From: Clostridia bacterium
GTDB lineage: Bacteria; Bacillota; Clostridia; TANB77; CAG-508
DNA length: 64,000 nucleotides
Assembly: GCA_017456555.1 (NCBI GenBank)
Contig: JAFTJF010000003.1
Location: forward strand, 64,404-128,403
Reading direction: 5' to 3'
This document shows, piece after piece, positions 11,216-63,887 of the stretch. The notes below the pieces were generated by a model. It did no database searches and was not told the DNA's origin. It worked only from the letters and a program-made list of their open reading frames with translations. Position numbers and translations under genes: made by a program. The number at the start of each line of letters is the position of its first letter. The first letter of the stretch is position 1.

Positions 11216-11292
<77 letters not shown>

Positions 11293-19323: not shown

Positions 19324-19403
19324 AATAAATCCCCCAATCATCAAACTCTATATACTTAATTATACCACTTTTAAGACACTTTGTCCAACAAGGACACTTT
19401 TGT

Positions 19404-20452: not shown

Positions 20453-20484
20453 AAAGCAGACTTCATGTGTCTGCTTTTTATTTT
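20451..20484. terminator. bidirectional terminator closing the EPS operon and the Spo0A_C-like gene
   Basis: AAGCAGAC-TTCATGT-GTCTGCTT flanked by A and T runs. Confidence 0.75.
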
Positions 20485-21539
20485 TATAAATTTATTTTCA
20501 ACATAATTTTATTTAATATTTCCTCTATTTTATTGTACTTAATTTTATCAAAGATGACATCTATAAATATGTCTATAATAACAGATGTTACAAATATAAT
20601 AATTACTGATGTTATCATATTTATAATCATAAATGCATTATTACTCATTTCTTTACATTTTAATATATTCCATAATACATCTCTAACCAAAGGATTATCA
20701 TGTAATATATACACATATAGTAAATGTGGAGTAATAATTTTAATCATCTTATTAAGATTATTATTATTTATTTTTATATCTTTAAATATTAAAAGATGGA
20801 TAACTGCTAACCCAAATAAAAATGAAGATGTTATAGCTGTAAAATGATATATTCCTGCTTTTAAAGCATTTATTTTCATACTAAAATAATAGATACTTAA
20901 AGTTAAAACAAAAATTATTATAACAAATATTAATGCAATTATTTTATAATACTTTTTATACTTATTCTCTTCATTCAATCTAATATATGCCCCAACAATA
21001 TATACATAAATAAACCATATTACATCGCTATACCATGGATCAAAAGATGTAAAAGTAGGAATAACTGAAAGAAGTATAAAACCATATATAATAATTCTTC
21101 TTAATATTTTAGATTCGACATTATTTATTAAATAATTTAAAATTGGAGATATTAAATATAATCCTACATATGCAGTAAAAAACCAATATAACCCACTAAT
21201 CAAAGGTATTACAGAACAAATCCAATTTTTTAAAGTAACTTCACCTATATTAAAACTTTTAAATATTACACATATCAATACTGAATAAAATATAACTTTC
21301 AAATCCATCTTTATTATTTTTGAAAATTTTAATTTATTTTCTTTATAGAAATAACCTGATATTAATACAAATATATTAGCACCTAGCTTTCCACATATAC
21401 TTATTAATAGAGCTAACCAAATATTTCCTGTCACTGTCGAATTTTCTACAATATTTCCATGATATACATAGTGCGACAATATTATAAAAATTATTGATAT
21501 AATTCTTAATAAATCAATATTATACTTTCTTTTTTCCAT
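20484..21539 (-). CDS. acyltransferase family 3 (polysaccharide O-acetyltransferase)
   Basis: About 10 TM segments. N-terminus NIDLLRIISIIFIILSHY is typical of Acyl_transf_3. Confidence 0.8.
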   Translation of the reverse strand: MEKRKYNIDLLRIISIIFIILSHYVYHGNIVENSTVTGNIWLALLISICGKLGANIFVLISGYFYKENKLKFSKIIKMDLKVIFYSVLICVIFKSFNIGEVTLKNWICSVIPLISGLYWFFTAYVGLYLISPILNYLINNVESKILRRIIIYGFILLSVIPTFTSFDPWYSDVIWFIYVYIVGAYIRLNEENKYKKYYKIIALIFVIIIFVLTLSIYYFSMKINALKAGIYHFTAITSSFLFGLAVIHLLIFKDIKINNNNLNKMIKIITPHLLYVYILHDNPLVRDVLWNILKCKEMSNNAFMIINMITSVIIIFVTSVIIDIFIDVIFDKIKYNKIEEILNKIMLKINL

Positions 21540-23058
21540 AAAATATCCCTTCTATTTTTTGCTTAAATAAATTTACAAAATATTTGAAAGATTCATTTTT
21601 TATAGAATATATTATCATTAAAGTAGTGGTTACAATTAATGAGCAAATTACCTTTATACAAAATTCAAATATTTCTGAATTAATTGAAATTGCTGTAACA
21701 AGGTAATAATTAATAATAATTATTACAAATAAATATATAAATCTTACTATAAATCGTTTATAATAGTTTTTTACTTTCATTCTAAAACCATATTTATATA
21801 GTACTAATGGTTCTATCCACGAACTAGATAATAATGAACTTAATATTGTTCCCATAAATATTCCGTCAATTCCAAATTTCATTGCAAAAACAATAGATAA
21901 TACAATATTCAAAAATGCTTCTATCAAAGATTTATATCTATCAACATAAAATAACCCCATAGAATCTCTAAAAGCCAATACTGACTTTCTCATTCCATTA
22001 ATATAAAAACTTATAGATATAATTATTACAGTACTAATCGAAAGCAAATATTTTTCACCAATCCATAATTTTATAAATGGATTAAATAGTGCAATTAAAC
22101 AACTTGTTGATATTGCATAAATAAAATATGTAAAAAAATCTATTTTTAAAAAAATATTTTCTTGTTTATTATTATCCTCTTTACTTGCACACAAATTTCC
22201 TATACTTGCCGTTATTGCATTATATATTTGAGTTATTACAGTCGTTAAAGCACTAATTATCATATTATAATTAGAATATATTCCAACTAAGGTTATGTTT
22301 ATAAATTTTGATATTAATAAATTATCAGTAGAACTCACAACAACCCATCCAATTTTATGTAGCATCATCGCTTTTGCATTTTTGAAAATTTCTTTTTTTT
22401 CATTCTTTTCTAATTGTAATTTCTTATTATTAATATATGGATAATCTTTTCTAGCCTTCCTTGAAATCAAGTAATTCTCAACAATAGTAAATATAATTTG
22501 CAATATCAAAAACAATATGTAATTTTTTGAAACAATTATTACAATAGCCTGTGTTATATATAATAATACATATCCAACATATCTATATAATGCATCAATA
22601 TATTTATCTTGATTTGCAATAATCAATGTTCTATCATATGAAAAAAAGTATGATATGCTTGTGTTAAGTACAAAAAGAATATAAATAAGATAAATATTAT
22701 CATAATCTTTGATATTATCTATAAATAAACTTAAAAAAGGTATTATAAGCATACCTAAACAGAAAATAACCCATCCGATTATTATATAAATTTTTTTAAA
22801 AAAATTCATAATTTGAGTTATTTTAGTCTCATCTTTTTCATATATTGGTTTATATAAGTAATATGTTATAGAAGTTCCAACACCCAATTCTGCTAGTGAT
22901 AGAATTGATAATATATTAGTAAATAAACTGTTTATTCCTAATAAGTCTTGTGATAAAAACTTTATAAAAATAGTTCTTTGAATAAAACTTGCAAATAAGG
23001 TAACAACTTGACCAATAATAGAATATTTAACATTTCTTAAAGATTTTTCTGTCCTCAC
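21520..23058 (-). CDS. wzx: Wzx-type oligosaccharide flippase (MOP superfamily)
   Basis: Polytopic protein. N-terminus SLRNVKYSIIGQVVTLFASFIQRTIFIKFL..LGINSLFTNILSILSLAELGVG is typical of polysaccharide biosynthesis flippases. Confidence 0.8.
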   Translation of the reverse strand: MRTEKSLRNVKYSIIGQVVTLFASFIQRTIFIKFLSQDLLGINSLFTNILSILSLAELGVGTSITYYLYKPIYEKDETKITQIMNFFKKIYIIIGWVIFCLGMLIIPFLSLFIDNIKDYDNIYLIYILFVLNTSISYFFSYDRTLIIANQDKYIDALYRYVGYVLLYITQAIVIIVSKNYILFLILQIIFTIVENYLISRKARKDYPYINNKKLQLEKNEKKEIFKNAKAMMLHKIGWVVVSSTDNLLISKFINITLVGIYSNYNMIISALTTVITQIYNAITASIGNLCASKEDNNKQENIFLKIDFFTYFIYAISTSCLIALFNPFIKLWIGEKYLLSISTVIIISISFYINGMRKSVLAFRDSMGLFYVDRYKSLIEAFLNIVLSIVFAMKFGIDGIFMGTILSSLLSSSWIEPLVLYKYGFRMKVKNYYKRFIVRFIYLFVIIIINYYLVTAISINSEIFEFCIKVICSLIVTTTLMIIYSIKNESFKYFVNLFKQKIEGIFYGKKKV

Positions 23059-23068
23059 AAGATTTTCC

Positions 23069-24079
23069 TCACTTCATTTTTATATTTCTTTTATATTTAA
23101 TTTTTATATATATTTTCTTTAATATTCTATATACTTTTTCTTGTATAGCATTATTTTTTATTTTATTGATTAATATATTTCTCTTTTTTAATTTCCATTC
23201 TGAATATTCACAATCCATTGTGTATTCTTTTATCTTTTTTGTATCTAATGTTATTTCATCAATAAATTTGTTAGGCACTATATAAAAAGAAGTGTAAGTA
23301 TTTGAAATCTCCATTTCCATACTTCTTTTTTGCAAATGAACATACATCACTTCTTTTTCTGAAATTTTATTATTTTCGTCTATAAATAATTCTATCAATT
23401 TTCCATTTTCATATTTAAATATTGAGTTTCTATTTTCACCATTTACATTTTTAAAAGCAAATTTGGTATAATCCACATCAAAATATTCATTTATATTTTG
23501 AGCTCTTATATCTGATTCATTCTCTGCAATTGTACTTACACCATGATCTTCATCAAAATGACAGCATAACTTTATTTTAAAAACTCTTTTATAATTATAC
23601 AAAGTAGAATGATTATCTATTCTAAATAAAGTATTCATTCTCATATTATTTCGATAAATTTGAAAATGACCATATTTATTAATTTTATCACTATTATTTA
23701 GAACTTCTTTTGTAATATAATTACTTAAATTCCCTAAAATTAAATCAATGTCAACATAGCCCCAAAATTCATAATCCTTTATATAATCTTGTAAAGCTAA
23801 ACCAAAAACAGCTTTATAATCACACAATTTATACGCATTTGGCAAACATATTTTAAATTCAAAAACATTTTGAAATATTTCTTTTAACTCTTCGAATTTA
23901 ATATTAATAAATTTAATATTATCATATTTTTTATTAATTACATTATCTGTAAAAATTAAGAAGTCAAAATCTGGATTTTTTAAAGCAGACTCTATCCACA
24001 AATCAAAATAATTGGGAAATTTTCCAAAATAGCAATTTATCAAAACAACTCTATTCATTCTTACACTCTTCCTTTTCAA
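23069..24079 (-). CDS. EPS-cluster protein, putative glycosyltransferase (DUF6625-like)
   Basis: VVLINCYFGKFPNYFDLWIESALKNPDFDFLIFTDN resembles the DUF6625 N-terminus found in capsule loci. Soluble protein. Confidence 0.45.
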   Translation of the reverse strand: MKRKSVRMNRVVLINCYFGKFPNYFDLWIESALKNPDFDFLIFTDNVINKKYDNIKFINIKFEELKEIFQNVFEFKICLPNAYKLCDYKAVFGLALQDYIKDYEFWGYVDIDLILGNLSNYITKEVLNNSDKINKYGHFQIYRNNMRMNTLFRIDNHSTLYNYKRVFKIKLCCHFDEDHGVSTIAENESDIRAQNINEYFDVDYTKFAFKNVNGENRNSIFKYENGKLIELFIDENNKISEKEVMYVHLQKRSMEMEISNTYTSFYIVPNKFIDEITLDTKKIKEYTMDCEYSEWKLKKRNILINKIKNNAIQEKVYRILKKIYIKIKYKRNIKMK

Positions 24080-25229
24080 ACTTATAATAATAATAAAATA
24101 TAGCTAAAAAAGCATATAAAGTTGGATAATATGCATATATTTCTGATATCATCATAACAACATAACTAAACAAAAATGATATCATTATTCTATATTCTTT
24201 ATTTACTTCTTTTATTTTTGGGATAGCTGAATATAACAATATAACAAATATAATTAAATTAACGATTCCACCTTCATATAAAATTTGAATAAATTGATTA
24301 TGTCCTTGCCAATACTCGCCTCTCCAATATACAAAATTACCATCATTTTTATAACCGTGTCCAAAGAATAAATTATCATCAATATAATCATATGATAAAT
24401 CCCATATTTCTGTTCTTCCTGTTAAAGATACACTTTTATGTAACACTTCTTCAATAAATATTGAAAATAAATTTTGAACTCTAAAAAAAGTAATTGACAC
24501 TACTATAATAAAAGCTAATGTTAAAAATATTCGAGGATTTATTTTCTTAAAATATTTACTAATAAAATAGTACATTAAAACTACAATTATTATTCCAACA
24601 ATTGCTGTTGAAATCCATGCTTTAAACATTGTAATTAAAGATATAATTATACAAAAAATATTAAATTTTTTATCTTTATCCATATCCCATCTAATCATTG
24701 AAATAAAAATTAATAAAAATAAATAATCTGTAAATCGCGTTCTAATCCCTAAAAAATGTAATCCCCAAAATTCATTTAAAATACCATCTGGATATTTTAA
24801 ATATAAAACTAAATTTATAGATAGATAAGTTATTAATATGTTTTGAAGTGATTTTAATGTTCTATCTCTATTTCTTTCAAATCCCAATTCTATCATCATA
24901 AAAACAGTTATGTGATTAAGAGATTGATAACCCCATTTTATAATATCACCATCATTTATTATTGTAGGAATTAACAGAGACATTCTGTAAAAAAACATTA
25001 TTACTATTAATTTTGATACTTTTTTATTTTTTATGATAAAGGAATACAAAGCATATAAAAAAGTAACACAAATACCAAAAATAAATAAATAATTTAACTT
25101 AGGTATTTTTACAAAAATTGTAGGTTCAAATAAAAATATTAGTAAGACAAACCAAACTTTCTCACTTATTTCACTATGAATTTTTTTACCCTTTTTTAGA
25201 ACTAAACTTCTCATAATAGTATTCTTCAT
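24051..25229 (-). CDS. wzy: Wzy-type O-antigen/EPS polymerase (O-antigen ligase-like)
   Basis: 10 or more TM segments with a large loop. GRTEIWDLSYDYIDDNLFFGHGY is typical of the Wzy_C region. Confidence 0.65.
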   Translation of the reverse strand: MKNTIMRSLVLKKGKKIHSEISEKVWFVLLIFLFEPTIFVKIPKLNYLFIFGICVTFLYALYSFIIKNKKVSKLIVIMFFYRMSLLIPTIINDGDIIKWGYQSLNHITVFMMIELGFERNRDRTLKSLQNILITYLSINLVLYLKYPDGILNEFWGLHFLGIRTRFTDYLFLLIFISMIRWDMDKDKKFNIFCIIISLITMFKAWISTAIVGIIIVVLMYYFISKYFKKINPRIFLTLAFIIVVSITFFRVQNLFSIFIEEVLHKSVSLTGRTEIWDLSYDYIDDNLFFGHGYKNDGNFVYWRGEYWQGHNQFIQILYEGGIVNLIIFVILLYSAIPKIKEVNKEYRIMISFLFSYVVMMISEIYAYYPTLYAFLAIFYYYYKFEKEECKNE

Positions 25230-26298
25230 ATCTCCTTTGTAGTTGTTTCGTTAATTTTTCAATATTAAAAATAGAATTATCAAAATCTTTCAAATCTCTT
25301 TTATAATGTATATTTTCTATAATACTGTTTTTCCAAGCTTCTTCGGATAATTTTATAAATTCTGATTTTTTCGATATATCTACTTCTCTCGTTATATTGT
25401 CTGAAAATAAACATTTTAATCCATTTGCCTGAGCCTCTATTCCAGTAACAGGTAACCCTTCAAAAAGCGATGGCATTATTAAAATATCCATAGCTTGATA
25501 TATACGATTTACATCTTCTCTTATTCCTAAAAAAATAATTTTATTATTTATATTTAAATCACATGCTAATTTATTAATTTCTTCTTTTGTTTCTCCATCT
25601 CCAATTAATAACAATTTCAAATTTTCATTTTCTCTTAATAATTTTTCCATTAAATTTATTATAAATTTGTGATTTTTTTGCAAATTAAATCTTCCAACAT
25701 GTCCTATAACAAATGTTTCTTCATTAATATCTAATTCTTTTCTAACAGTTTCTCTTATTTTAGGATTATATTCAAATTTTTTGAAATCAATAGCATTTGG
25801 AATAACATCAAAAGACTTCTTTTTATATAAATACTTCCCCGCTTCATTTGAACATGCCCATCGCACATTAGCATGTTTATCAGCAAATCTAAATAAAATG
25901 TACTTTGCAATACCTTTTACCGTTTTTAAAAATGATGTTCCATGACTATGTATAATCCTATATTTTACCCCATTTTTTTTTGCAATCCATAAATATATAA
26001 ATGCTAAACTTGCCATATGTCCATGAACAACTTTATATTCTGTATGTTCTTTAAAAAATTTATCTAATTCTTTTATATATCTTATAACATTTTTATTTTC
26101 CATTACTGGAAATCTATATATTTTTCCACCTAATCGTTCAATCTCTTCATCAAAAAAACATTTTTTATTATAATGGACTAAAAAATCAAATTGTATCTTA
26201 TTCTTATCAATATTTCTATATATGTTCATTATAAAATTTTCAATTCCACCTTGTTGCATATTTGGAACTATTTGCAATATTCTAATTTCATTTCCCAT
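25186..26298 (-). CDS. glycosyltransferase family 4 (GT-B)
   Basis: GRFNLQKNHKFII..MPSLFEGLPVTGIEAQANGLKCLFSD matches the E-x7-E GT4 signature. Confidence 0.85.
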   Translation of the reverse strand: MGNEIRILQIVPNMQQGGIENFIMNIYRNIDKNKIQFDFLVHYNKKCFFDEEIERLGGKIYRFPVMENKNVIRYIKELDKFFKEHTEYKVVHGHMASLAFIYLWIAKKNGVKYRIIHSHGTSFLKTVKGIAKYILFRFADKHANVRWACSNEAGKYLYKKKSFDVIPNAIDFKKFEYNPKIRETVRKELDINEETFVIGHVGRFNLQKNHKFIINLMEKLLRENENLKLLLIGDGETKEEINKLACDLNINNKIIFLGIREDVNRIYQAMDILIMPSLFEGLPVTGIEAQANGLKCLFSDNITREVDISKKSEFIKLSEEAWKNSIIENIHYKRDLKDFDNSIFNIEKLTKQLQRRYEEYYYEKFSSKKG

Positions 26299-26308
26299 TA
26301 GTTATCCT

Positions 26309-27487
26309 CTATTTTAATATTTTTTTTATTTTATTTTTAATCTTTATAGGAATAATTGTTTTTATAAAATTTTTAACCTTATTTTTTATTATTAAATTCT
26401 TTTTTACAAATTTCTTAGGTGATAAAGTGTCAATTCCATAATAAATATTATTACGAGTAATTTTTCGTTCTGTTGGTCTCTCTAAATTCTTATTTTTCTT
26501 CAAAATATCATCTAAAAGAACTTCTTTAAATTCAATATCATTAACAAGTTCTAAAAAAAGTTTTCTTCCCTTTTCTGAATTAATTAAAACTGCTGAAACA
26601 CCATTATCATCATAAAAATTACTATCTATTAATTCTATTCCCCAAAAATCCCCAAGAGTAATATCAGAAACTCTTTCTTTTTTGGCAAATTTACAATCAT
26701 AGCAAGACTCCCTATAAGTATTTCCTTTCAAAAAATTATAATAATATGGGTCACTATTTGCATTTATATATACATTTTTATTATTATTCGTAAGAATTTT
26801 TGCACAAAAATTCCCCCAAACTTTCTTTTCTTTATTTCTAAAATCATAATATATAATGCTTTGGCGAATTTTTTCTTCTAAATATTTTATATATTTTAAG
26901 AATAGTTTTTGACTAGGAACTCCATGACAAATAAAATCTATCGTATATAGGTTATCAAAATCTTTTTTTAAAAAGGATTTTAATCCTGCAATTTGACATG
27001 GTGTTCCTATATATATTACCTTTTTATCTTTAAGCAATTCATTTTTTACATCAACAAAAGTTTCTTTTGTATCACTAAATATATATTTTGATCCTCTTAT
27101 TTCATCTAAACCTTCTAAATTTGTTACTTCTATTTGATTAACAGTCATATCTTTATTTAATTTTGAACCAAATACACATCCATTTTTTTCTATTATTTTT
27201 TTAGAAAAAAGATATGCAATTCCCGCTGATGTACTTTTTCTAGCACATTCTTCATCTTTATTTTTAATAGCATAAGTTTTTAATGGTTTTTCTTTTTTTA
27301 CTTCATTTAATAACGGACATACTTTCTTACAAATTCCACATTTTACGCATTTATCATCTAAAACTATTGGATATATGAAACCTTCTTCATCTTCTTGCAT
27401 TATAATCGCTTTTTGTGGACAAATTTTTTCACAAGCTCTACATCCAACACAATCTTTTTTTTCTTTAATTTGTATATAATCTTCCAT
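26309..27487 (-). CDS. coenzyme F420 hydrogenase/dehydrogenase beta-subunit-like Fe-S protein (pyruvyl-transferase partner)
   Basis: Two 4Fe-4S ferredoxin motifs (CVGCRACEKICP and CVKCGICKKVCP) followed by an FrhB-like body. This type is commonly paired with polysaccharide pyruvyl transferases. Confidence 0.75.
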   Translation of the reverse strand: MEDYIQIKEKKDCVGCRACEKICPQKAIIMQEDEEGFIYPIVLDDKCVKCGICKKVCPLLNEVKKEKPLKTYAIKNKDEECARKSTSAGIAYLFSKKIIEKNGCVFGSKLNKDMTVNQIEVTNLEGLDEIRGSKYIFSDTKETFVDVKNELLKDKKVIYIGTPCQIAGLKSFLKKDFDNLYTIDFICHGVPSQKLFLKYIKYLEEKIRQSIIYYDFRNKEKKVWGNFCAKILTNNNKNVYINANSDPYYYNFLKGNTYRESCYDCKFAKKERVSDITLGDFWGIELIDSNFYDDNGVSAVLINSEKGRKLFLELVNDIEFKEVLLDDILKKNKNLERPTERKITRNNIYYGIDTLSPKKFVKKNLIIKNKVKNFIKTIIPIKIKNKIKKILK

Positions 27488-27502
27488 AAGACTCCTTTAC
27501 TA

Positions 27503-28615
27503 TTATAAAGCACTATCTATATACTTATTAGCAATTATTCTTTGCTCTTTTAAAATATCATTCGCAACAGAAAAATCTATTCTTTTATTGCACAAAGATA
27601 TATCTTCATAATTATCAACAATTCTATCTTCTAATTTTGTTATTTCTAATATACTTCTAACTCTTGTACTATATTTTTCTGGAAATACAATCATAAATTC
27701 TGTGTTAAAATTAATAGAGAAAGCAGTTGCATGAAAAGAATCAGTAACAACATATTGAGCATATTTTAATAATGATAAAAAATCTTCTACTTTAACATTG
27801 CATTTCATTTTTCCTTTTTTATAAAATTCATGTAATGCATAAGACACATAATATATCTCTAAATTTTTTTCTTTTGCTAATTTTTCTACATATTTATCAA
27901 TCTTTTTGTTTCTATTTAAATTATATACAAAAATAAACTTTTTATCTTTGTATCGTTCAGAAGCCAATTCACTCCACTCTTTTCCTGTTAATAAAAGAGT
28001 CGGATCAACTACATTTATAGCACCTTTAATCCCCAAATCTTCAACAATCTCAACTCCCGAAATTTCTCTCAAAGATAGTTTATTATATTTTTTTAAAAGT
28101 CTCTTAGTTTCGTCTTTTTCCCAATTCTCTAATTTACTTTTCCCAAAACTTGCAGCATAAGAAAAACATTTTTTTCCATTTGTATCAAAATCTAAAAAGA
28201 ATGGTGAATCTATTTTTTCATTCCAACCAGTATTCCATACTTGGTCACTTCCAGTGCAATAATAATCTGCAATTGGTGGATTATTTTTCAAATCATCTTC
28301 ATTCTTATATATAACATTAGATAAATTAAGGTTTTTATTAATAAATTTTTTAAATGTATGAAATCTTTGAATATATGATGGAATCATTATTACTCTCGCA
28401 ATATTTCTTAAAATAATATTCTTTTTAAACTTTTGACTTTTATTTTTTATTCTTTTTAACATTCCTAACATATGCATTCTTTCAGGATAATAATCTATAA
28501 ACTCAACATCTAAATTTTTATTTTCAAAAACCTTTTGAGTCGCATATGCTTGAAGAACTGAACCATAATTTACGATTCTATGTAATGTAATTATATTAAT
28601 TTTTTTCTTTTCCAT
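27503..28615 (-). CDS. polysaccharide pyruvyl transferase
   Basis: INIITLHRIVNYGSVLQAYATQKVFE N-terminus and ..VVTDSFHATAFSINF motif are typical of PS_pyruv_trans. Confidence 0.8.
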   Translation of the reverse strand: MEKKKINIITLHRIVNYGSVLQAYATQKVFENKNLDVEFIDYYPERMHMLGMLKRIKNKSQKFKKNIILRNIARVIMIPSYIQRFHTFKKFINKNLNLSNVIYKNEDDLKNNPPIADYYCTGSDQVWNTGWNEKIDSPFFLDFDTNGKKCFSYAASFGKSKLENWEKDETKRLLKKYNKLSLREISGVEIVEDLGIKGAINVVDPTLLLTGKEWSELASERYKDKKFIFVYNLNRNKKIDKYVEKLAKEKNLEIYYVSYALHEFYKKGKMKCNVKVEDFLSLLKYAQYVVTDSFHATAFSINFNTEFMIVFPEKYSTRVRSILEITKLEDRIVDNYEDISLCNKRIDFSVANDILKEQRIIANKYIDSAL

Positions 28616-28616
28616 A

Positions 28617-29453
28617 TTAATTTCCTTTTTTTCTTAATATTTTTTTATAAATGATTTCTCTAATAAAATTTGGCATTAGGCATGTTATAATACTTGCACT
28701 AGAACTTATAATATAATCTTTTTTTGAAAAAAAACCATTTTTTACTTGTTCCGTTTTAAATTTTAATATAGATTTTAAATATTTGATGCCACCACGCCTT
28801 TTATAAAAATCGTCACTCACTCGCATATATACCAAATTTTCTTGAATGTTATATGCTTTTGCATTTACATTAAACAACCTAATCCACATATCATAATCTT
28901 CACATAAATAATATGTCCTGTAATTTCCTGCTTCCAATATTTTACTTTTTCTTAATAACATCGATGGATGTCCAAATGGGTTTCTTTTTTTAGCAAATTT
29001 AATAATTTCATTATGCTTTTCAGGCAATACTCTATAAGCTCTTATGTTCTTTATATCTCCTGTAAATTCAGCTATATTAGACCCTACCATATCTAAATTA
29101 TATTCTTGTATAATTTTCAACTCTTTTTCTATTCTATCTTTTCTAGAAATATCATCTGAATCCATTCTAGCAATATATTCATTTTTGCATTGTTTTACAC
29201 CTATTGCTAATGCTGGTCCTAGTCCAATATTCTCTGATAATTCTATAATATTAAATATATCTGAATACTTTTTACAATATTCAGATATAACAAAATTCAA
29301 TTCTTCATTTAATTTTCCATCTTTTACTATTACAAAATCATTTGTTTTTATAGTTTGATTCATCATACTTTCTATGCTTTCTATCAGCCAATCTTTATTA
29401 TCTTTATAATATACACTCATCAAAACACTATAATTTATTGCATTTGTATCCAC
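28617..29453 (-). CDS. glycosyltransferase family 2
   Basis: YSVLMSVYYKDN..ESIESMMNQT and the DxD-type ARMDSDDIS motif. Confidence 0.85.
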   Translation of the reverse strand: MDTNAINYSVLMSVYYKDNKDWLIESIESMMNQTIKTNDFVIVKDGKLNEELNFVISEYCKKYSDIFNIIELSENIGLGPALAIGVKQCKNEYIARMDSDDISRKDRIEKELKIIQEYNLDMVGSNIAEFTGDIKNIRAYRVLPEKHNEIIKFAKKRNPFGHPSMLLRKSKILEAGNYRTYYLCEDYDMWIRLFNVNAKAYNIQENLVYMRVSDDFYKRRGGIKYLKSILKFKTEQVKNGFFSKKDYIISSSASIITCLMPNFIREIIYKKILRKKGN

Positions 29454-29457
29454 TTCT

Positions 29458-30195
29458 CTATACTGCTCCCTCTTTTTTTAAAACAGATATTACAGTTTTA
29501 AATAAAATTCCTATATCCATAAAAATAGAATTATTAACAACATAATGAAATTCCATTTCAACTCTTTCTTCGTAAGAAGTTTCACTTCTTCCATGTGCTG
29601 CCCAATATCCAGTCACACCTGGTTTAACACTTAAAACTGCATTTTTAAATTCTCCAAATTTTTCAATTTCACCATCTATTACAGCTCTTGGACCTACTAA
29701 ACTCATCTCTCCTTTTAGTACGTTTAAAAACTGTGGAAATTCATCAAGAGATGTTTTTCTTAATATTTTTCCTATTTTTGTAATTCTTGGATCATCGTTC
29801 AATTTTCTATGTTCTTCCCACTCTTTTCTAGCATCTTCATCTTCTTTAAGAAGTTTTTCTAAAACTTCTTGTGAATTCATACACATACTTCTAAATTTAT
29901 ACATTTTAAAGTGTTTTCCATTTTTTCCAATTCTTTCATGAGAATAGAAAATTGGTCCAAAATCCTTATTTAAAATATTTATTATTTTCACAACAATAGT
30001 AAGTGGAATTAATATAATAATCCCTACTATCGCCCCAACTATATCCATAATTCTTTTGAAAAAAGAATTTATATATTTTATGTATTTAATACTTTTCCTA
30101 AAAACAATTAATCCTTGAATTTCTGAATTTAATTGATTGTTTTCAGTAACTTCTGTTTGTTCAAAAGTTTGTAAAACTCCTTCATTTATATTCAT
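29458..30195 (-). CDS. undecaprenyl-phosphate sugar phosphotransferase (small monotopic PGT, Bac_transf family)
   Basis: FKRIMDIVGAIVGIIILIPL..PIFYSHERIGKNGKHFKMYKFRSM..DEFPQFLNVLKGEMSLVGPRA. Confidence 0.9.
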   Translation of the reverse strand: MNINEGVLQTFEQTEVTENNQLNSEIQGLIVFRKSIKYIKYINSFFKRIMDIVGAIVGIIILIPLTIVVKIINILNKDFGPIFYSHERIGKNGKHFKMYKFRSMCMNSQEVLEKLLKEDEDARKEWEEHRKLNDDPRITKIGKILRKTSLDEFPQFLNVLKGEMSLVGPRAVIDGEIEKFGEFKNAVLSVKPGVTGYWAAHGRSETSYEERVEMEFHYVVNNSIFMDIGILFKTVISVLKKEGAV

Positions 30196-30366
30196 CTTCT
30201 ACATCCTTTTTTAATTTTTCATTAAAAATAATTTTGGAAACTCTGAGTATATTTTGATTCAATGAATCACTTCTTTATATGCACTTCTAGTACATAATGC
30301 CGATACCCAAGCAAATTAAATTTTTCATATAGAAAAAATCAATTACCTATCTATTCCTAGTAGGAT

Positions 30367-31596
30367 TTAATCTAAAATAAGTCCAAATTTTTTCAGACAC
30401 ATTTTTCCAATATTCATTGCAGTATTAAAATAATAATTCCCATTATGACCATTCTCACATGAGAATTCACTTTCATTTCTCTTCACTTTTGCTCTACATT
30501 TATGACATTTACTTGCTGTGTAATTTTGTCTAACAGTTGTAATAAGTATTCCTGCTCTAAAAGACTTATAAGATAAATAATTTATAATTATTCTTCTTAG
30601 TGTTATTGGACTGTATTTTCCAACTTTATGCCCAAATCCAACAACATCATCTTCTAATTTTGTTATAGAAATTACTTTGACATTGTTTTCTAAACAGAAA
30701 TCAATTATTTCTTTACTAACTTTGTGAGCTGTATTTTGTCTAATGCGATTTAGTTTTTCCCAATATGTCCTATGGTCTGCTTTATCTAGTGTTTTCTTTC
30801 CATTTTGTCTATGTTTCTTAATTTGCTTCAAAATCTTATCTGTTTGAAACTTGTAATAATTTCCACCAGAAATAAATTTTGATTTTACAAATTCTCCATT
30901 TCGGTTTAAAATAGTGCAGATTGCAATATTATCTGTATTAGAAAAACTAATTCCACACACCCTCAAATTTTCATCTTGCATTCTTTCTTTAACTGGTCTT
31001 ACATCTTCTACAATTTCTCTGACAGGAAGATGCATCATTACATATCGAGAATTAATAACAAGAGTCGGTGACATACTTTCTAAGTTTTCATCAAACGCTC
31101 TGCCTTTCAATTTTGCTTTAAACCACTCCCATTTATAACCATTCCAAAGTTTAAGCATTACAGAATCTTTTTTTAATTCTTTATACATTCCTTGATAAAA
31201 AACAGGAGAACAATTAAATTCAGTTGTAATCGATGGTTCTTTTCCTTTTTTCCCCTCTTGTTTCTCATAATCACTTAATAGTGAAATATAAGACCTTGCA
31301 GAACCAATTGCTTGATTTATTGCTGATCTTCTAAAATATGTTGGTAATTCCATATCTAAATAATTCTTAGGAACATCGCCATTTCGACTAATAATTGTTA
31401 TTTTTTCAAGCTCTCTCAAACAATATTGATTACTTAAATTTAAAAACTCTATATTTTCTAGTAATAAGTTGTAATAAAATAAAACAACTTGGTTATAAAT
31501 ATTCTTAGTAAGTTTTACAAAATCCATATGATTGATATAAAGTCTCAACTTATATGTAATTGTGCAATATCCAGCCTTATTTTCAGTTAATTCCAT
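30367..31596 (-). CDS. TnpB-like (IS200/IS605 OrfB-type) protein with apparent loss of RuvC catalytic residues
   Basis: TnpB hallmarks: N-terminus ITYKLRLY, LPTYFRRSAINQAIGSARSY, Zn-ribbon CHKC..C. The RuvC-I position reads GISFS instead of GxDxG. The RuvC-III position reads YYFNTAMNIG instead of xxDxNAAxNI. No Y1 TnpA gene is adjacent. Confidence 0.7.
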   Translation of the reverse strand: MELTENKAGYCTITYKLRLYINHMDFVKLTKNIYNQVVLFYYNLLLENIEFLNLSNQYCLRELEKITIISRNGDVPKNYLDMELPTYFRRSAINQAIGSARSYISLLSDYEKQEGKKGKEPSITTEFNCSPVFYQGMYKELKKDSVMLKLWNGYKWEWFKAKLKGRAFDENLESMSPTLVINSRYVMMHLPVREIVEDVRPVKERMQDENLRVCGISFSNTDNIAICTILNRNGEFVKSKFISGGNYYKFQTDKILKQIKKHRQNGKKTLDKADHRTYWEKLNRIRQNTAHKVSKEIIDFCLENNVKVISITKLEDDVVGFGHKVGKYSPITLRRIIINYLSYKSFRAGILITTVRQNYTASKCHKCRAKVKRNESEFSCENGHNGNYYFNTAMNIGKMCLKKFGLILD

Positions 31597-31618: not shown

Positions 31619-31646
31619 TTTCGTTAAATATGCTATTTAACGAAAA
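31619..31646. repeat. left inverted core site (IR-L) of the invertible cassette
   Basis: TTTCGTTAAATATGCTATTTAACGAAAA, internally palindromic (TTCGTTAAATA-TGC-TATTTAACGAA). Its reverse complement recurs at 32739..32766 with 26/28 identity. Confidence 0.75.
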
Positions 31647-31672
31647 TAACCTCATTATAAATTACTTATGAG

Positions 31673-31701
31673 ATTATATCAAACATGTATATAAATTACA
31701 A
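31673..31701 (-). promoter_or_regulatory. extended -10 promoter (TTGTAA-17-TGATATAAT) inside the cassette, firing toward IR-L and the TnpB-like/EPS operon
   Basis: Minus strand: TTGTAA at 31701..31696, a 17-nt spacer, TATAAT at 31678..31673, preceded by TG at 31681..31680. Confidence 0.55.
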
Positions 31702-31769: not shown

Positions 31770-32699
31770 TTGTTCAAGATTAAACATTTATTTTTTACAA
31801 AAGATATTTATTTTTATACTATTATAGATAGTTGGTTAATCTATAAATATAACTCAGTAAAAGAATCGACCTATTTAAAATATAAATATATGATAAAAAA
31901 ATATCTTTATCCTGAATTAAAATATAAAACATTAAAAGAGCTTATCAATTATGACTATAATAATTTTATAAGTAAGTTTTATTATTTAAATAACAATACC
32001 ATAAAAACTTTAATAACCATATTAAAATCAATTCTTAAATATACAGAAAGAAAACATAATGTTGATTTAAAATTAGATTTAATTCAATATCCAAAAACAT
32101 TAAAAAAAGAATTAGAAATATTTTCTGATAAAGAAAAACAAAAATTAATATCTTATTGTTATAATGATAATTCTCTGAAATCAATAGGGATATTAATCTG
32201 TTTATATACAGGAATAAGATTAGGGGAACTTTGTGCATTGAAGTGGAAAGACATTAATTTAAAAACAGATATAATTTCCATTAACGAAACATTACAAAGA
32301 GCTTATGATAATGACTCAACAAAAATTATAATAGGACCTCCCAAATCAACTTCATCTATAAGAAAAATACCTATAAACAAAAAACTTCATAATATTTTAT
32401 ATTCGGTGTATAAGCTCAATAAATATGATAGTAATGCTTATTTTTTAACAGGAACTATTGATAAATTTATAGAACCTCGTAACTATCAATATACTTTCAA
32501 AAAAATCCAAAAAAATTTAAATATACCAAATCATAATTTCCATATATTAAGGCACACATTTGCAACAGACTGTATAAAAATAAATATGGATGTAAAATCA
32601 TTAAGTAGAATATTAGGACATGCAAATGTGAATATAACGCTTAATAAATATGTTCATCCATCTTTTGATTCTACCAAAAAATATTTAGAGAAAATCTAA
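31770..32699 (+). CDS. tyrosine recombinase (XerC/D-like, putative invertase)
   Basis: TTG start behind a GAAAGGGGA RBS. GIRLGELCALKWKDI (Arg I), HILRHTFATDC (HxxR), LGHANVNITLNKYVH (His..Tyr). Confidence 0.85.
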   Translation: MFKIKHLFFTKDIYFYTIIDSWLIYKYNSVKESTYLKYKYMIKKYLYPELKYKTLKELINYDYNNFISKFYYLNNNTIKTLITILKSILKYTERKHNVDLKLDLIQYPKTLKKELEIFSDKEKQKLISYCYNDNSLKSIGILICLYTGIRLGELCALKWKDINLKTDIISINETLQRAYDNDSTKIIIGPPKSTSSIRKIPINKKLHNILYSVYKLNKYDSNAYFLTGTIDKFIEPRNYQYTFKKIQKNLNIPNHNFHILRHTFATDCIKINMDVKSLSRILGHANVNITLNKYVHPSFDSTKKYLEKI

Positions 32700-32701
32700 G
32701 G

Positions 32702-32742
32702 CTCGTATAAAGATTTCAATCTTTATATGAGTCTTTTTTTTT
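32702..32742 (+). terminator. intrinsic terminator of the recombinase gene, abutting IR-R
   Basis: 13-bp stem CTCGTATAAAGAT-TTCA-ATCTTTATATGAG followed by a T9 run. Confidence 0.8.
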
Positions 32743-32766
32743 CGTCGAATAGCATATTTAACGAAA
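32739..32766. repeat. right inverted core site (IR-R) of the invertible cassette
   Basis: TTTTCGTCGAATAGCATATTTAACGAAA. Its reverse complement is TTTCGTTAAATATGCTATTCGACGAAAA, which matches IR-L at 26/28 positions. Confidence 0.75.
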
Positions 32767-32783
32767 TTTTTTAAGCACAAAAA

Positions 32784-32809
32784 AGCAAATGAATCTTCGT
32801 TCATTTGCT
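32784..32809. terminator. bidirectional terminator just outside IR-R
   Basis: AGCAAATGA-N8-TCATTTGCT flanked by A6 and a T-rich run. It overlaps the stop codon of the ORF at 32801. Confidence 0.65.
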
Positions 32810-33091
32810 TTTCTTCTTATTATCATTTAATGATTCTACCATTAATGAGTTTGCAAGAGAAAAACCATATTTGAAACCGACTCTCATCATATTAATTCCT
32901 TTTTCTTGATTTAAGTCCATACAATCAGAAAGCATTCTTTTAATATCTTTATTAAATCTTTTTCTAACATTATCTTCGCTCTCTTCTGCAAGTTCTGACA
33001 ATTTTAAATATCTTTCATCTCTTTCTAGTTTTTCAAATAGTTTATTCTCATAATTATAATAAAGTTCTTCAAGTGAATTTTCAATTTCCAC
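32801..33091 (-). CDS. hypothetical small protein (96 aa from the GTG start)
   Basis: The ORF in the track starts at 33148. A GTG at 33091 behind a GGGGTGA RBS is the more plausible start. No family recognised. Confidence 0.4.
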   Translation of the reverse strand: MEIENSLEELYYNYENKLFEKLERDERYLKLSELAEESEDNVRKRFNKDIKRMLSDCMDLNQEKGINMMRVGFKYGFSLANSLMVESLNDNKKKSK

Positions 33092-33323
33092 TTTTTCACC
33101 CCCATTAATAACCAAATTTATATTAATGGTAACACATAAAAACCCCATTTTCTACTTTTTTTGATGATAAAAGTGTTGAGACCGTAAAGCTTTCAGCCAA
33201 ACATCTTGAAATTACTCATAACTTTTTTTAACTGTTTGGGGACTTTTTAAACTTTTAAACTCATTTTCAAACAAAAACACAAACAAAATCTCTATACTCC
33301 TTGAAAATACTCATCAAAAACCC

Positions 33324-35281: not shown

Positions 35282-36889
35282 TTACAGAAATTCTATATCA
35301 TCTAAAAACTCTTTCACAGTTTCAATATTTTTAATATTATTTGGAACTTCTAATTCATACACCATTCCTTTGTATATGAACATATAAATATTATAAACAT
35401 CACTACTACTTTCTGTCCACATAATAGCATCTATTTCTTTTAATTTTGTATTTTTAACATTATAAAATTTAAAATCATTAAAAGTAAAATTCTCAGAATT
35501 AATTTTTTGACCATCTATAATTATTTCTCTATTTTTTCCTAGTTCTAAAATTTCTGACCTATTTAAATTTATTGCATCTGCTCTATTTTCTAAATATATT
35601 GGATATTTTTCTTGAAATGGATGCACTCCCCAAGACACGCTATCAACATATCTTCTAAATTCTGCAAGCTCTTCTAATGTCCTATTTTCTAAATTTTCAT
35701 AACATTCTAAACGAATAAAATCGTTATACTCCTTTTTATCACCAAAATATTCATATAATCTTAAGTCCATTCTATAAATAGTTCCATCATGTAAGGTTGA
35801 GTTGTTTTCATAAATATCAACATCTAATTCTTCATCATATTTCAATTTTAAATCTTGCCATTTTTTTGTAGTATATGAAATCTCTTTTCTTGCTTTTTTC
35901 TTAATATCATTTCTTAAATCAATAGTAATTGTTCCTTCAGATAATTTTTCTGTTCCATCAACTTCAGATATATTTATAGTAATTTTTGAATCAAAATCTA
36001 TTTTCTTAAAAACAATTTCTGTTGGTGTTCCTCCTGGAATTCTTTGAATATTACTTGGAAGAATAACTTCACCATTTTCATCAATAATTTCTATAAAATA
36101 ATCTACACCACCAGTAAGGTATCCATCTAAATAACATACCAGTTTTGTTGCCAAATCTGATTTTTTTATTTCTAATAAATTTAAAGTTTTATATATATGA
36201 TTTTCTGGAATCTCTTCTAATTTCAATTCTTTTAATGTAACTTTCTTATCATCAAATATATATTCTTCATAATCAAGTACTTTTCGTTTGCTTTCTAATG
36301 GAATTCTAAAACTCCATTCTCCTATATGCTCACCTGTATCTAAATATTTAGGTAAATAAATTTTAGTTTCAAATATTGCATTATCACTAATTTTACTTGT
36401 ATCGAAATTGTATACAGCAATAGCCTCATACTCTGTATCGTTTATTTTATTAAGTGTCATTTGAATACTTCTTTCTAGTCCATATACATTCTCACCATCT
36501 ATAATTCTGCTAATATCTATCATATTATTTACAAAAGTTTCTTCTACATTATTTACTTTTAACTTATATCCTACAATTAAAGTGTTATCGTCAAAACCAT
36601 AACTTTCTAATATCAAACTCGCATTTTCATCAACTTGTACATCATTTACTTGTGTTACATCGAAAAGTTCTAATTTGTCAAGAACATATGAAATTATATT
36701 TTGATTATATGTAGCATATGTATAAATATTTCCACCAACAATTCCTGCAACAATAATAAAAGAGGCTGCTTTGAAAAACATATTTGTTTTTTTCTTTACT
36801 TGAGTATTATTTTCTTTTCTAAATTCTTCAATTGCAATTTTTTCTTCTAATCTTTTTAATACTCTTTGATTCAAATCTTTATTTTCCAT
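35282..36889 (-). CDS. putative anti-sigma factor / membrane-anchored ectodomain protein
   Basis: Its start overlaps the stop of the sigma gene at 36879..37433 by 11 nt. Short cytoplasmic N-terminus, one TM segment and a large beta-rich ectodomain (GEWSFRIPLE motif, as in DUF4179-type anti-sigmas). Confidence 0.55.
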   Translation of the reverse strand: MENKDLNQRVLKRLEEKIAIEEFRKENNTQVKKKTNMFFKAASFIIVAGIVGGNIYTYATYNQNIISYVLDKLELFDVTQVNDVQVDENASLILESYGFDDNTLIVGYKLKVNNVEETFVNNMIDISRIIDGENVYGLERSIQMTLNKINDTEYEAIAVYNFDTSKISDNAIFETKIYLPKYLDTGEHIGEWSFRIPLESKRKVLDYEEYIFDDKKVTLKELKLEEIPENHIYKTLNLLEIKKSDLATKLVCYLDGYLTGGVDYFIEIIDENGEVILPSNIQRIPGGTPTEIVFKKIDFDSKITINISEVDGTEKLSEGTITIDLRNDIKKKARKEISYTTKKWQDLKLKYDEELDVDIYENNSTLHDGTIYRMDLRLYEYFGDKKEYNDFIRLECYENLENRTLEELAEFRRYVDSVSWGVHPFQEKYPIYLENRADAINLNRSEILELGKNREIIIDGQKINSENFTFNDFKFYNVKNTKLKEIDAIMWTESSSDVYNIYMFIYKGMVYELEVPNNIKNIETVKEFLDDIEFL

Positions 36890-37433
36890 ATTTATACCCC
36901 CTTTCTTCTAATGCTTTCTTTATTTTTTTTCGTATTCGATGTAACTTTGTACTAACATTAAATTCGGTATAACCAATTCTTTTGGCTATTTGTTTTATTT
37001 TCATACCTTTAAAATAAAACATTATAAATATTTCTTTATCTTTTCCAAATTTTTCAAGTTCATTTGAAATAATTTCAAATTCTTCTTTTGATTCAACTAA
37101 TTCTTCAATATTTTCTTTGGATTTTATTTCTTCTTGAGTTTCAATAGATTCATAAGAAATATTTAAACTTCTTAATTTATTTTTCGCAATATTTTTAGTG
37201 ACACCAGCTATATATGGCTTTAATGGAAAATTATAATTTAAATTTTCTTTATTTTTCCATAATACAAGAAAAACATCAGATATCATTTCTTCAATATCTT
37301 CGTCTGTTAGTAGATTTTTGGTTATATTTTTTATAATCACTAAAATATAATTACTGTAATCATTAACTATCTTTTCTACATTTAAAGAATTATCATTATT
37401 TATATAATTTCGTATTAAATATGCATCTTCCAT
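36879..37433 (-). CDS. ECF-type sigma-70 family sigma factor
   Basis: Region 2 is SDVFLVLWKN..YIAGVTKNIAKNKL. Region 4 is IFIMFYFKGMKIKQIAKRIGYTEFNVSTKLHRIRKKIK. Confidence 0.8.
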   Translation of the reverse strand: MEDAYLIRNYINNDNSLNVEKIVNDYSNYILVIIKNITKNLLTDEDIEEMISDVFLVLWKNKENLNYNFPLKPYIAGVTKNIAKNKLRSLNISYESIETQEEIKSKENIEELVESKEEFEIISNELEKFGKDKEIFIMFYFKGMKIKQIAKRIGYTEFNVSTKLHRIRKKIKKALEERGYKYGK

Positions 37434-37566: not shown

Positions 37567-38298
37567 CTATAAATTATTTATTCTTTCTTTTAACTCTTCA
37601 TCATCAATTTTATTACTATTCCCCTCTACCATCATTTGTGAAAATTCTCTTAAAACTTGTTTTTCTTCTTCTGTTGGATTCATAGTGTCAAATATTTCAA
37701 CTACACAACGTAATAATGTTTTTCCAGTTTCTGAGAAAGTATAAGATTTAATCATATCTGTTTCTGGATTTTCGTTATTCATTTCAGCAAGTATTTGATT
37801 GATTTTTTCTTCTCCATGATATTTGTACATTATTGATTCAAAATCGTTTTCCAATTGTTCATATTCTTTAATTCTTGTATCTATTGCTTCTGGTGAGTTA
37901 TAAGAATTCTTATTATCAGACACTACATTAATTTCTTCTACAACATTACCTATAATCACTATATTATTCTCTTCAATAACATTTCCTATAGGTTCTTCCT
38001 CTATTTTTGGTTTACTTTCAGCAGGTATCATTACTGACACCTCTTTTCCCATTAATTCTTCTGGAATATTTTCCCCAACAACTATAACTGGTTTTCCATT
38101 TATTGGATTATATTTTATAATTTTTGTAACTGCCACAACGGCACAAGTTGTAAAAATAATCATACAACAAGCAACTGCTACAATTTTAAAAATATTAGAA
38201 CTATTTTCTCTCTTTTCTATCATTTCCTTATCATCAAAGTTGGACATAGAAATTTTTAATTTTACATTTTCTAAGATTTTTTCTTTATTTATCATCAC
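37567..38298 (-). CDS. putative anti-sigma factor (single-pass membrane protein)
   Basis: Overlaps the upstream sigma gene by 14 nt. Has a TM segment (IVAVACCMIIFTTCAVVAV). Confidence 0.5.
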   Translation of the reverse strand: MMINKEKILENVKLKISMSNFDDKEMIEKRENSSNIFKIVAVACCMIIFTTCAVVAVTKIIKYNPINGKPVIVVGENIPEELMGKEVSVMIPAESKPKIEEEPIGNVIEENNIVIIGNVVEEINVVSDNKNSYNSPEAIDTRIKEYEQLENDFESIMYKYHGEEKINQILAEMNNENPETDMIKSYTFSETGKTLLRCVVEIFDTMNPTEEEKQVLREFSQMMVEGNSNKIDDEELKERINNL

Positions 38299-38833
38299 TA
38301 TACCCTCCTTTCGAAAATTCTTTTTTTATTTTGTTTCGTATTCTATAGAGTTTCATTTTCACATTAAAATCTGATATATTTAATACTTTCGATATTTCTG
38401 ATATTTTCATAGAAGAATAGTAATACAAATTAAATATTAATATATCATCTTCTTTTAATTGTTTTACTGTCTTTTCTAAAATGCTTATCTTTTCTCTTTG
38501 TTCACATATCATATCAATTTTTATATTGTCTTGAATTATATTCTCATAATTTGAAATATCAAAATCTATATTTATTACTCTACACTTTTCTTTTACTAAG
38601 TTCTTGGTTATTCCTGCTATATATGGGCTCAACAATTTATCATCTTCTAGCTTCTTTGTGTTTTTCCAAAGTATAAAAAATGTATCTGATATAATTTCTT
38701 CAACATCTTCATCAGATAAATATTCTTTTGCCATATTTTTTATAATAGTATAAACATATCCACTATATTCATTAATAATTTTTTCCAAATCTAATTCTTT
38801 ATTGTTTTTGTATCTTTTTATTTCATTTCTCAA
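38285..38833 (-). CDS. ECF-type sigma-70 family sigma factor
   Basis: SDTFFILWKN..YIAGITKNLVKEK (region 2) and LIFNLYYYSSMKISEISKVLNISDFNVKMKLYRIRNKIK (region 4). Confidence 0.8.
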   Translation of the reverse strand: MRNEIKRYKNNKELDLEKIINEYSGYVYTIIKNMAKEYLSDEDVEEIISDTFFILWKNTKKLEDDKLLSPYIAGITKNLVKEKCRVINIDFDISNYENIIQDNIKIDMICEQREKISILEKTVKQLKEDDILIFNLYYYSSMKISEISKVLNISDFNVKMKLYRIRNKIKKEFSKGGYSDDK

Positions 38834-45724: not shown

Positions 45725-45883
45725 TTATTGTTTATTTTTCATTTCTTCTTCAAAATTTTTACCAGTATATTCATTATATGCAGAAACAAAAAGTTCATAA
45801 AATTTCTTATATTCTTCTGTATTTCCTTGTTCTTGTGCTATAATCATCAATTCTTTGTATTCAGCTAAATCACCTATTGTCAT
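45725..45883 (-). CDS. small hypothetical protein (52 aa), not in the ORF track
   Basis: Manual translation gives MTIGDLAEYKELMIIAQEQGNTEEYKKFYELFVSAYNEYTGKNFEEEMKNKQ. The GGAGGAGGAG SD lies inside the 3' end of the giant gene, and the start overlaps its stop codon. Confidence 0.4.
   Translation of the reverse strand: MTIGDLAEYKELMIIAQEQGNTEEYKKFYELFVSAYNEYTGKNFEEEMKNKQ

Positions 45884-63810: not shown

Positions 63811-63887
<77 letters not shown>

Follow-up and report, generated by a model that had tools for sequence, protein, structure and literature searches.

A TnpB-like protein, predicted to be nuclease-dead, and an adjacent structured RNA at the head of phase-variable exopolysaccharide operons in gut Clostridia

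A 64,000-nucleotide stretch of a Clostridia bacterium assembly (GCA_017456555.1, contig JAFTJF010000003.1, positions 64,404 to 128,403), analysed in full and referred to below as the window, carries a TnpB-like gene upstream of an exopolysaccharide (EPS) operon, and an earlier note on the same DNA had proposed this gene as a candidate relative of the TldRs, nuclease-dead TnpB homologues that act as RNA-guided repressors. Analysis of the window and of homologous loci established that the window locus is phase-variable, being driven by a promoter on an invertible DNA segment (an inverton) and captured in the ON orientation, and that the TnpB-like gene evolves under purifying selection. Its product is predicted to be a nuclease-dead descendant of an IS607-type TnpB, a cognate structured RNA is apparently encoded beside it, and gene, RNA and EPS operon seem to be transcribed as a single unit. 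The functional reading favoured here, to which an even chance is given, is that such loci represent a TldR-like clade of IS607-type ancestry, the protein and RNA of which would constitute an RNA-guided DNA-binding complex, expressed in the ON state only and regulating surface polysaccharide in trans.

The TnpB-like protein and its partner RNA

All of the motifs previously quoted in favour of a TnpB/OrfB architecture were located in the 409-residue product of the gene, namely ITYKLRLY (residues 13–20), VCGISFSNTDNIA (213–225), ISITKLEDD (309–317), CHKC (364–367), SCENGH (379–384) and NYYFNTAMNIG (387–397), and the assignment was borne out by profile and fold comparisons, though the protein proved to be divergent. 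The profile check that the earlier note had recommended returned a match above the cut-off for the zinc-ribbon family PF07282 of Pfam (Cas12f1-like_TNB; 1.7e-8) and one below it for OrfB_IS605 (0.002), while the NCBIfam model guided_TnpB scored 47.9 bits against a cut-off of 100. An AlphaFold2 model computed with 32 homologues as input gave a predicted local distance difference test value (pLDDT) of 90 and a predicted template modelling score (pTM) of 0.78; when this model was compared with the PDB by Foldseek, Cas12f and TnpB structures ranked highest (E 1e-15 to 1e-12; TM 0.5–0.64), with Fanzor2 and dCas12f (9n9c, 9n9m) also among the best folds. A profile of the protein and its close homologues (hereafter the clade) matched the PDB TnpB 9nzp at 1.5e-13. 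Homology and modelled structure together indicate a divergent member of the TnpB/Cas12f superfamily with the WED-REC-RuvC-zinc-ribbon arrangement, a family for which no name was found in the sources consulted. Searched against 1.84 billion representative proteins, the clade profile returned 137 matches at E<=1e-30 and 3511 at E<=1e-3; full-length open reading frames (ORFs) are retained over a range of 35–100% protein identity, and the ratio of nonsynonymous to synonymous substitution rates (dN/dS) was 0.10–0.15 in the four pairs compared. No second copy of the gene is present within the window.

The state of the RuvC active site was assessed by aligning 27 of the more distant full-length profile matches with the window protein and seven other clade members. 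In the distant relatives the three catalytic columns contained Asp (27/27), Glu (27/27) and Asp (23/27), as against S217, T312 and Y389 in the window protein and, in the seven other clade members, C, M, S, Y or A at the first position, T, A, Q or P at the second and Y, F or V at the third. A wider alignment of the clade (n=32) contained no example of either the first Asp or the Glu, and a single instance of the last Asp. Since the triad is lost throughout the clade while more distant relatives keep D-E-D, its loss is ancestral to the clade, and the window protein is accordingly best read as nuclease-dead rather than as the ordinary active TnpB that an intact triad would have signified. The earlier count of two substituted positions out of three held for S217 and Y389 and fell short in respect of the third, so that all three are altered: the RuvC-II Glu, which had been regarded as ambiguous, falls opposite T312 when the protein is aligned, both pairwise and by profile, with Cas12f and TnpB of known structure, and the same alignments place Y389 opposite the RuvC-III Asp. 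Nor was the supposed degeneracy of the second Cys pair of the zinc ribbon upheld, C364, C367, C380 and H384 being kept in all clade members whose sequence extends that far, a pattern that points to a conserved ribbon with three Cys ligands and one His (CCCH).

Evidence of ancestry was provided by P0143, a protein among the nearest relatives with an intact triad, the gene for which directly follows a serine recombinase gene; because this is the IS607 arrangement, it argues for IS607-type ancestry of the clade. The reported absence of a Y1 TnpA gene and of transposon ends was substantiated, no TnpA gene being present either in the window or in the homologous loci, and the sole recombinase encoded beside the TnpB-like gene is a tyrosine recombinase bounded by its own inverted sites. 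With respect to the transposon ends and target-adjacent motif of active relatives, the contig encoding P0110 was too short, and the three P0143 contigs represented one locus in which no boundary could be read.

The 171-nt interval previously noted between the TnpB-like stop codon and the priming sugar transferase gene that opens a nine-gene EPS operon on the same strand was confirmed, and is occupied by a structured RNA element that begins (ATCCTA) right after the stop codon, ends ...CTCAGAG, and comprises helices P1 and P2, a long-range closing helix and an inner P3. RNAalifold predicted 34 pairs from 14 copies, with compensatory changes in 21 of them. Paired cells amounted to 96.2% on the predicted structure, compared with 29–45% when partners were slid by one to three columns, the covariation score was 0.58 compared with 0.07–0.14 for the slid versions, and none of 500 shuffles matched any of the observed pairing measures. 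A covariance model built from the copies detected the element in at least 43 loci, and an nhmmer sequence profile built from the matches to that model extended its presence to 72 of 93. Matches were always single in each locus, on the strand of the protein gene and adjoining it, and the element was also found beside proteins just 31–38% identical to that of the window. The small RNA that the earlier note had anticipated is thus represented, at the level of DNA, by a conserved structured element beside the gene, consistent with a cognate RNA. Searches of Rfam gave no match at the gathering score across the whole window and noise alone at E<=10 over positions 30100–30600, nor did covariance models of known cis-regulatory RNAs of polysaccharide operons, such as the eps-associated RNA, match within the window.

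In one subclade, with proteins 43–44% identical to that of the window, the RNA lies upstream of the TnpB-like gene as a 5' leader (L018:5839-5980, L019:1047-1187, L020:5827-5974, L087:32-162), having moved yet remained with the protein gene. In loci of the L018–L020 type the sugar transferase gene follows the protein gene almost without a gap; the called product of L087 (474 residues) probably starts too early, overrunning the RNA.

Beyond the closing helix, some 8–14 nt are conserved within subclades, after which the sequences diverge. In the window the first ~10 nt of this 3' tail are kept within the subclade and the remainder varies, the conserved start in its group being TTTCCAAAAT and those of other groups ATGCCAAATTGAA, GCAGTARAATCCAA, TTATTAAA and TTTTAAAT. 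A guide of such limited length would be plausible because oppF-associated TldRs use guides of 9–11 nt (PMC10705468).

The invertible promoter and the distribution of the module

Two lox-like sites of 27 nt were detected in the 64 kb, as against 0.02 expected, and the best promoter match of the region is situated just inside the proximal one, firing outward (Table 1). Because this promoter is directed into the TnpB-like gene, the window was assigned to the ON orientation. No intrinsic terminator or strong promoter was predicted inside the window EPS operon, and the only strong promoter candidate for the transcription unit would be the one on the invertible segment.

The switch was seen in both of its states. 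Among the 12 public contigs that encode a protein identical to that of the window, two metagenome contigs (L094 and L095) derive from different samples of one study: their 400-nt flanks are 100% identical on each side, their 1094-bp segments agree at 100% only when one is reverse-complemented, and the inner half-sites are exchanged as expected from strand exchange inside the spacer. Some of the other contigs with this protein end at the switch. Observation of the same locus in opposite orientations with identical flanks is evidence of a promoter switch and not of an island; the integrative-element setting given to the locus in the earlier note was accordingly abandoned, the recombinase sites being inverted and bounding only their own 1.1-kb segment, and the neighbouring "integrase" is most simply interpreted from its position as the invertase of the switch. 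Inverted to OFF, the promoter would fire at a bidirectional-looking hairpin (32781–32812) and antisense into a convergent DUF6809 gene (32801–33148), a neighbour also present in L094 and L095.

Table 1. Coordinates of the principal features of the window locus (positions are those of the window)
Feature	Position	Strand	Details
Nine-gene Wzy-type EPS operon	20484..30195	minus	domain/family matches
Candidate short guide: 3' tail after scaffold	30215..30240	minus	TTTCCAAAATTATTTTTAATG...; just upstream of the sugar transferase ribosome-binding site
Putative structured RNA scaffold, conserved (omega-RNA-like)	30241..30366	minus	~125 nt; covariation; covariance model 110 bits in window
TnpB/Cas12f-like gene, predicted nuclease-dead	30367..31596	minus	409 aa; S217, T312, Y389; zinc ribbon C364/C367/C380/H384
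Proximal lox-like site	31619..31645		TTTCGTTAAA-TATGCTA-TTTAACGAAA; ends 22 nt upstream of TnpB-like ATG
Invertible segment	31646..32739		1094 bp; carries promoter, recombinase gene and its terminator
Predicted sigma-70-type promoter	31654..31682	minus	TTGATA-17 nt-TATAAT; 11/12 matches
Xer-like tyrosine recombinase	31770..32699	plus	309 aa; NCBIfam match under cut-offs; probable invertase of switch
Predicted recombinase terminator	32698..32735	plus	hairpin + T-run; within invertible segment
Distal lox-like site	32740..32766		TTTCGTCGAA-TAGCATA-TTTAACGAAA; spacer reverse-complementary to that of the proximal site

An equivalent module, in the order inverton, dead TnpB, RNA and variable EPS genes, recurs at differing chromosomal sites in Lachnospiraceae (Blautia, Coprococcus, Bariatricus, Dorea, Frisingicoccus), Eubacterium, Acetivibrio and uncultured Clostridia of animal guts, often in several copies per genome and at least seven in one. 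The position of the TnpB-like gene is fixed across ~90 loci. Gene content and chromosomal flanks differ between loci, and the downstream genes are polysaccharide genes throughout, the first downstream ORFs (n=73) being dominated by priming sugar transferases, glycosyltransferases of the GT4/GT1 and GT2 types, nucleotide-sugar epimerases/dehydratases and Polysacc_synt_2 proteins. The homologues are, as the earlier note had supposed, syntenic with EPS loci and not scattered insertion sequence (IS) copies, the link extending over the whole 35–100% range of protein identity.

In each of the 16 loci with a recombinase in the segment, an outward consensus promoter was present at the 5' end of the recombinase gene, directed toward the TnpB-like gene in six and away from it in ten, and the orientation of the recombinase relative to the TnpB-like gene likewise varies among homologous loci. 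The same repeats were found in both states (L002 and L008 versus L007; L036 versus L031). Small invertons precede nearly all of the more distant copies, mostly of 160–450 bp and without an internal recombinase, and the TnpB-like start codon is found 13–110 nt past the proximal recombination site in the majority of loci checked. Seven loci of an Acetivibrio metagenome-assembled genome (MAG) share the arms TTTCGCTAAG/CTTAGCGAAA, two being ON and four OFF by promoter direction, and the arms TCGCAGAC/GTCTGCGA are common to four loci in Eubacterium callanderi FD. The locus closest to that of the window, L006, encodes a TnpB-like protein 89% and a sugar transferase 93% identical to those of the window and is in the OFF orientation; its recombinase is just 63% identical and its repeats differ, and from this disparity the switch cassette appears to have been exchanged independently of the genes that it controls. 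Two of the distant loci have unusually long inverted repeats (88 and 93 nt) around segments of 250–300 bp (L068:5082-5559 and L035:5350-5784), placed 217–442 nt upstream of the TnpB-like gene, unlike the short lox-like sites elsewhere.

Proposed function and competing explanations

By analogy with TldRs, the dead TnpB protein and its RNA would form an RNA-guided DNA-binding complex for which the short semi-conserved 3' tail would serve as the guide. The complex would be made only when its own locus is ON, from which it follows that it probably represses a distant target, most likely by sterically blocking RNA polymerase there; either another surface-polysaccharide locus or a common resident surface locus would be a candidate. 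The cell surface would in this way be tied to the phase-variable locus that happens to be ON, and the complex would be functionally analogous to the UpxZ layer in Bacteroides. In that genus each capsule locus opens with the genes for UpxY and UpxZ, and its invertible promoter is flipped by Mpi or Tsr recombinases. A more specific version, in which gut Clostridia would have an RNA-guided counterpart to the multi-capsule system of Bacteroides, is offered tentatively and is on balance doubtful: a locus flipping ON would supply a complex that silences competing polysaccharide loci or a common default surface locus, so that random inversion of promoters and programmable repression by guide RNAs would jointly determine the glycan coat.

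A number of results weigh against control in trans by a guide RNA, among them those of the searches for a guide target. A 16-mer of the window tail, allowing up to three mismatches, gave 35 matches in the 64 kb compared with 23 +/- 5 expected, a result taken as chance-level; k-mers of the 24-nt tail searched within each locus gave chance-level AT-rich matches with no consistent position; subclade seeds of 8–9 nt (e.g. ATGCCAAAT and GCAGTAGAA) had no second copy within ~6–8 kb of the loci; and cross-matching of tails between paralogues, carried out for E. callanderi, E. limosum and the Acetivibrio MAG, was likewise at chance level, with no consistent site in one another's promoter regions for the E. 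callanderi and Acetivibrio loci. Because no guide target was found, repression is inferred. Moreover, the tails of paralogues in one genome start alike, which speaks against locus-specific cross-targeting and agrees better with one shared target than with silencing between particular loci. The RNA lies within the operon mRNA with no detectable promoter or terminator of its own, so that a purely cis role is possible. Its descent from omega-RNA is also only weakly indicated, by position and by one weak match of the RNA model (16 bits, E 0.22) that falls precisely at the 3' end of the IS607-type tnpB encoding the active relative P0143 and opens in the same manner, first a P1 with GAAA loop and then a long P2.

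One exact 16-nt match, ATTAAAGGAAAGAAAA, between the tail of L032 and positions 3781–3796 of L082 was rejected as probably due to chance, being purine-rich and within an unrelated coding region. The site lies in the same Acetivibrio MAG, inside an ORF of 170 residues and 2.2 kb upstream of the TnpB-like gene of that locus. Inspection by eye of the tail against the P1 loop and the conserved ATCGC segment revealed no covarying complement indicative of a pseudoknot.

The most serious competitor, possible and yet improbable on balance, is that the RNA is an operon leader element and the dead TnpB its RNA-binding cofactor, the two controlling the EPS genes of their own locus in cis by processive antitermination (as with the Bacillus eps-associated RNA and Bacteroides UpxY), by occlusion of a ribosome-binding site or by autoregulatory binding to the tail-encoding DNA. 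The RNA is always sense and inside the transcription unit, and the ribosome-binding site of the next gene is positioned ~12–40 nt past the scaffold, whether that gene encodes the sugar transferase or (L018–L020) the TnpB-like protein; the failure to detect a promoter or terminator belonging to the RNA, or a target in trans, would be explained, and the loci are without the NusG-like or CpsA-D regulators with which such operons ordinarily begin. Antitermination is nonetheless difficult to reconcile with a window operon lacking predicted internal intrinsic terminators that would need to be overridden, and Rfam gave no match to known antitermination RNAs. Purifying selection, furthermore, acts on the whole DNA-binding architecture (WED/REC/RuvC/zinc ribbon), which exceeds the needs of an RNA-binding cofactor, and all characterised dead TnpB and Cas12f relatives act on DNA.

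It is unlikely that the ribonucleoprotein acts at or near the recombination sites as a modulator of the switch, biasing or locking its own or other invertons and so providing a memory of the ON state or a hierarchy of loci. The closeness of the proximal site to the TnpB-like start codon in most loci checked, the predicted restriction of the protein to the ON state and the repeat arms common to paralogous loci would suit such a role, in opposition to which stands the failure to find complementarity of the RNA tails to inverton repeats, spacers or junctions. No precedent for such a role is known.

Very improbable is the suggestion that the module is an integrative island, with the neighbouring gene as its integrase and the dead TnpB silencing the resident capsule of the host on arrival. 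The module does occupy chromosomal positions that differ from genome to genome, the recombinase and its repeats are modular (as in L006), and genes of the DUF3846/RadC type, common on mobile elements, lie past the far end of the operon. The two sites of the recombinase are, however, inverted, flank only its own gene and promoter, and recombine with each other; many copies have no recombinase, just a short inverton; and no direct-repeat att (attachment) pair was seen around the operon, though none was searched for. A role for the neighbouring gene as island integrase is thereby largely refuted.

Hardly credible, finally, is a decaying and functionless IS remnant carried along beside the EPS promoter, or an ordinary active TnpB, as might be supposed from TnpB homology and low scores to curated TnpB models, given that a remnant would not be expected to keep full-length ORFs over the identity range cited with dN/dS of ~0.1, a confidently predicted fold, invariant CCCH ligands, a covarying partner RNA and a fixed position in ~90 loci, and that an active enzyme is contradicted by loss of the triad across the whole clade and by the lack of TnpA and transposon ends.

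Comparison with known systems and other features of the window

Just three TldR clades have been characterised, associated with fliC, csrA and oppF respectively (Wiegand et al., PMC10705468; Xiao et al. 2026 preprint 10.64898/2026.09.22.753285), and the TldR authors describe the roles of most clades as unknown. Judged by sequence-level features, the window clade would qualify as TldR-like: in common with TldRs it is TnpB-derived, has lost the RuvC triad clade-wide together with the transposase and transposon ends, has acquired a stable link to a set of non-transposon genes, and has an adjacent same-strand scaffold RNA with a short semi-conserved 3' tail. It differs in being a separate lineage, the nearest active relatives of which are of IS607 type and the window member of which falls under the NCBIfam TnpB cut-off; in having Wzy-type EPS operons as partners and heading a regulated operon behind an invertible promoter; and in reaching at least seven copies per genome, with the RNA upstream of the gene in one subclade. 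None of these distinguishing features (separate lineage, EPS partners, inverton, multiple copies, upstream RNA) is mentioned in the TldR papers compared (PMC10705468, 10.64898/2026.09.22.753285).

The capsule loci of Bacteroides share with the present loci their occurrence as several loci per genome, each with a promoter inverton and with repeat arms in common, a dedicated regulatory gene in first position followed by variable glycan genes, and a population of mixed ON and OFF states. Here, by contrast, the regulatory layer would consist of a dead TnpB and its RNA, non-homologous to the NusG-like UpxY and to UpxZ, the hosts are Gram-positive, and in the window subclade the recombinase is carried by the invertible segment itself, an arrangement shared with the Hin system. 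The likeness is therefore best regarded as one of logic, not of ancestry.

The dCas12f-sigmaE systems are RNA-guided transcription activators of Bacteroidetes (PMC13472631) and have in common with the window protein a nuclease-dead miniature Cas12f/TnpB fold, two of their structures (9n9c, 9n9m) being among the fold matches, and, on the reading proposed here, a guide RNA that serves gene regulation. Loci of the window type differ in having neither a linked sigma factor, their neighbours being variable, nor a CRISPR array, and sequence similarity is marginal (E 0.002). Two ECF-type sigma-70 family genes do occur in the window (36879–37433 and 38285–38833), each followed by a gene without a Pfam match (35282–36889 and 37567–38298) that could encode an anti-sigma partner; as counterparts of the dCas12f-sigmaE pairing they were rejected, not being conserved beside homologous loci.

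IS607-family TnpB with its omega-RNA provides the nearest relatives in which D-E-D is intact, and its 3'-end RNA starts with a similar P1 (GAAA loop) and long P2. The window clade differs in lacking the serine recombinase and the transposon ends, in its apparently dead active site, and in that its copies are divergent paralogues fixed at EPS loci rather than identical repeats.

An arrangement of inverton, dead TnpB, RNA and EPS genes is undescribed within the full-text literature searched, which included inverton surveys, the supplementary clade list of the original TldR survey lying outside the comparison. If the favoured reading is true, the loci would constitute a large further TldR clade, with 137 representative clusters at E<=1e-30, and would join DNA-inversion phase variation to RNA-guided DNA binding, two principles previously not seen together. 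The clade is tied to variable surface polysaccharides, a central trait of gut commensals that shapes phage susceptibility and immune recognition, and the arrangement suggests how Gram-positive gut bacteria with many EPS loci might coordinate them, a matter well worked out only in Bacteroides. Cultured carriers include Eubacterium callanderi, Blautia schinkii, Coprococcus comes, Bariatricus massiliensis and Acetivibrio ethanolgignens, so that the hypothesis is directly testable, and a compact dead effector with its RNA could become a tool.

Within the window EPS operon the genes encode, in order, a priming sugar transferase (Bac_transf), GT2, a pyruvyl transferase, an FrhB-like Fe-S protein, GT1, a Wzy polymerase, a DUF6625 protein, a flippase and an acyltransferase. 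The FrhB/FdhB-like 4Fe-4S protein (26309–27487), which follows the pyruvyl transferase (27503–28615), is an unusual-looking partner for a glycan operon, and the pair recurs in L094–L097. Past the distal end of the operon are DUF3846/RadC-like genes (15827–16603 and 16593–17951) and an HTH_3 regulator gene (18601–19344); DUF3846/RadC-type and such regulator genes often ride on conjugative or other mobile elements. The largest ORF of the window, encoding 1608 aa, occupies positions 45870–50696 on the minus strand, and tRNA genes are located at 11216–11292 (Arg), 63811–63887 (Arg) and 63922–63997 (Pro).

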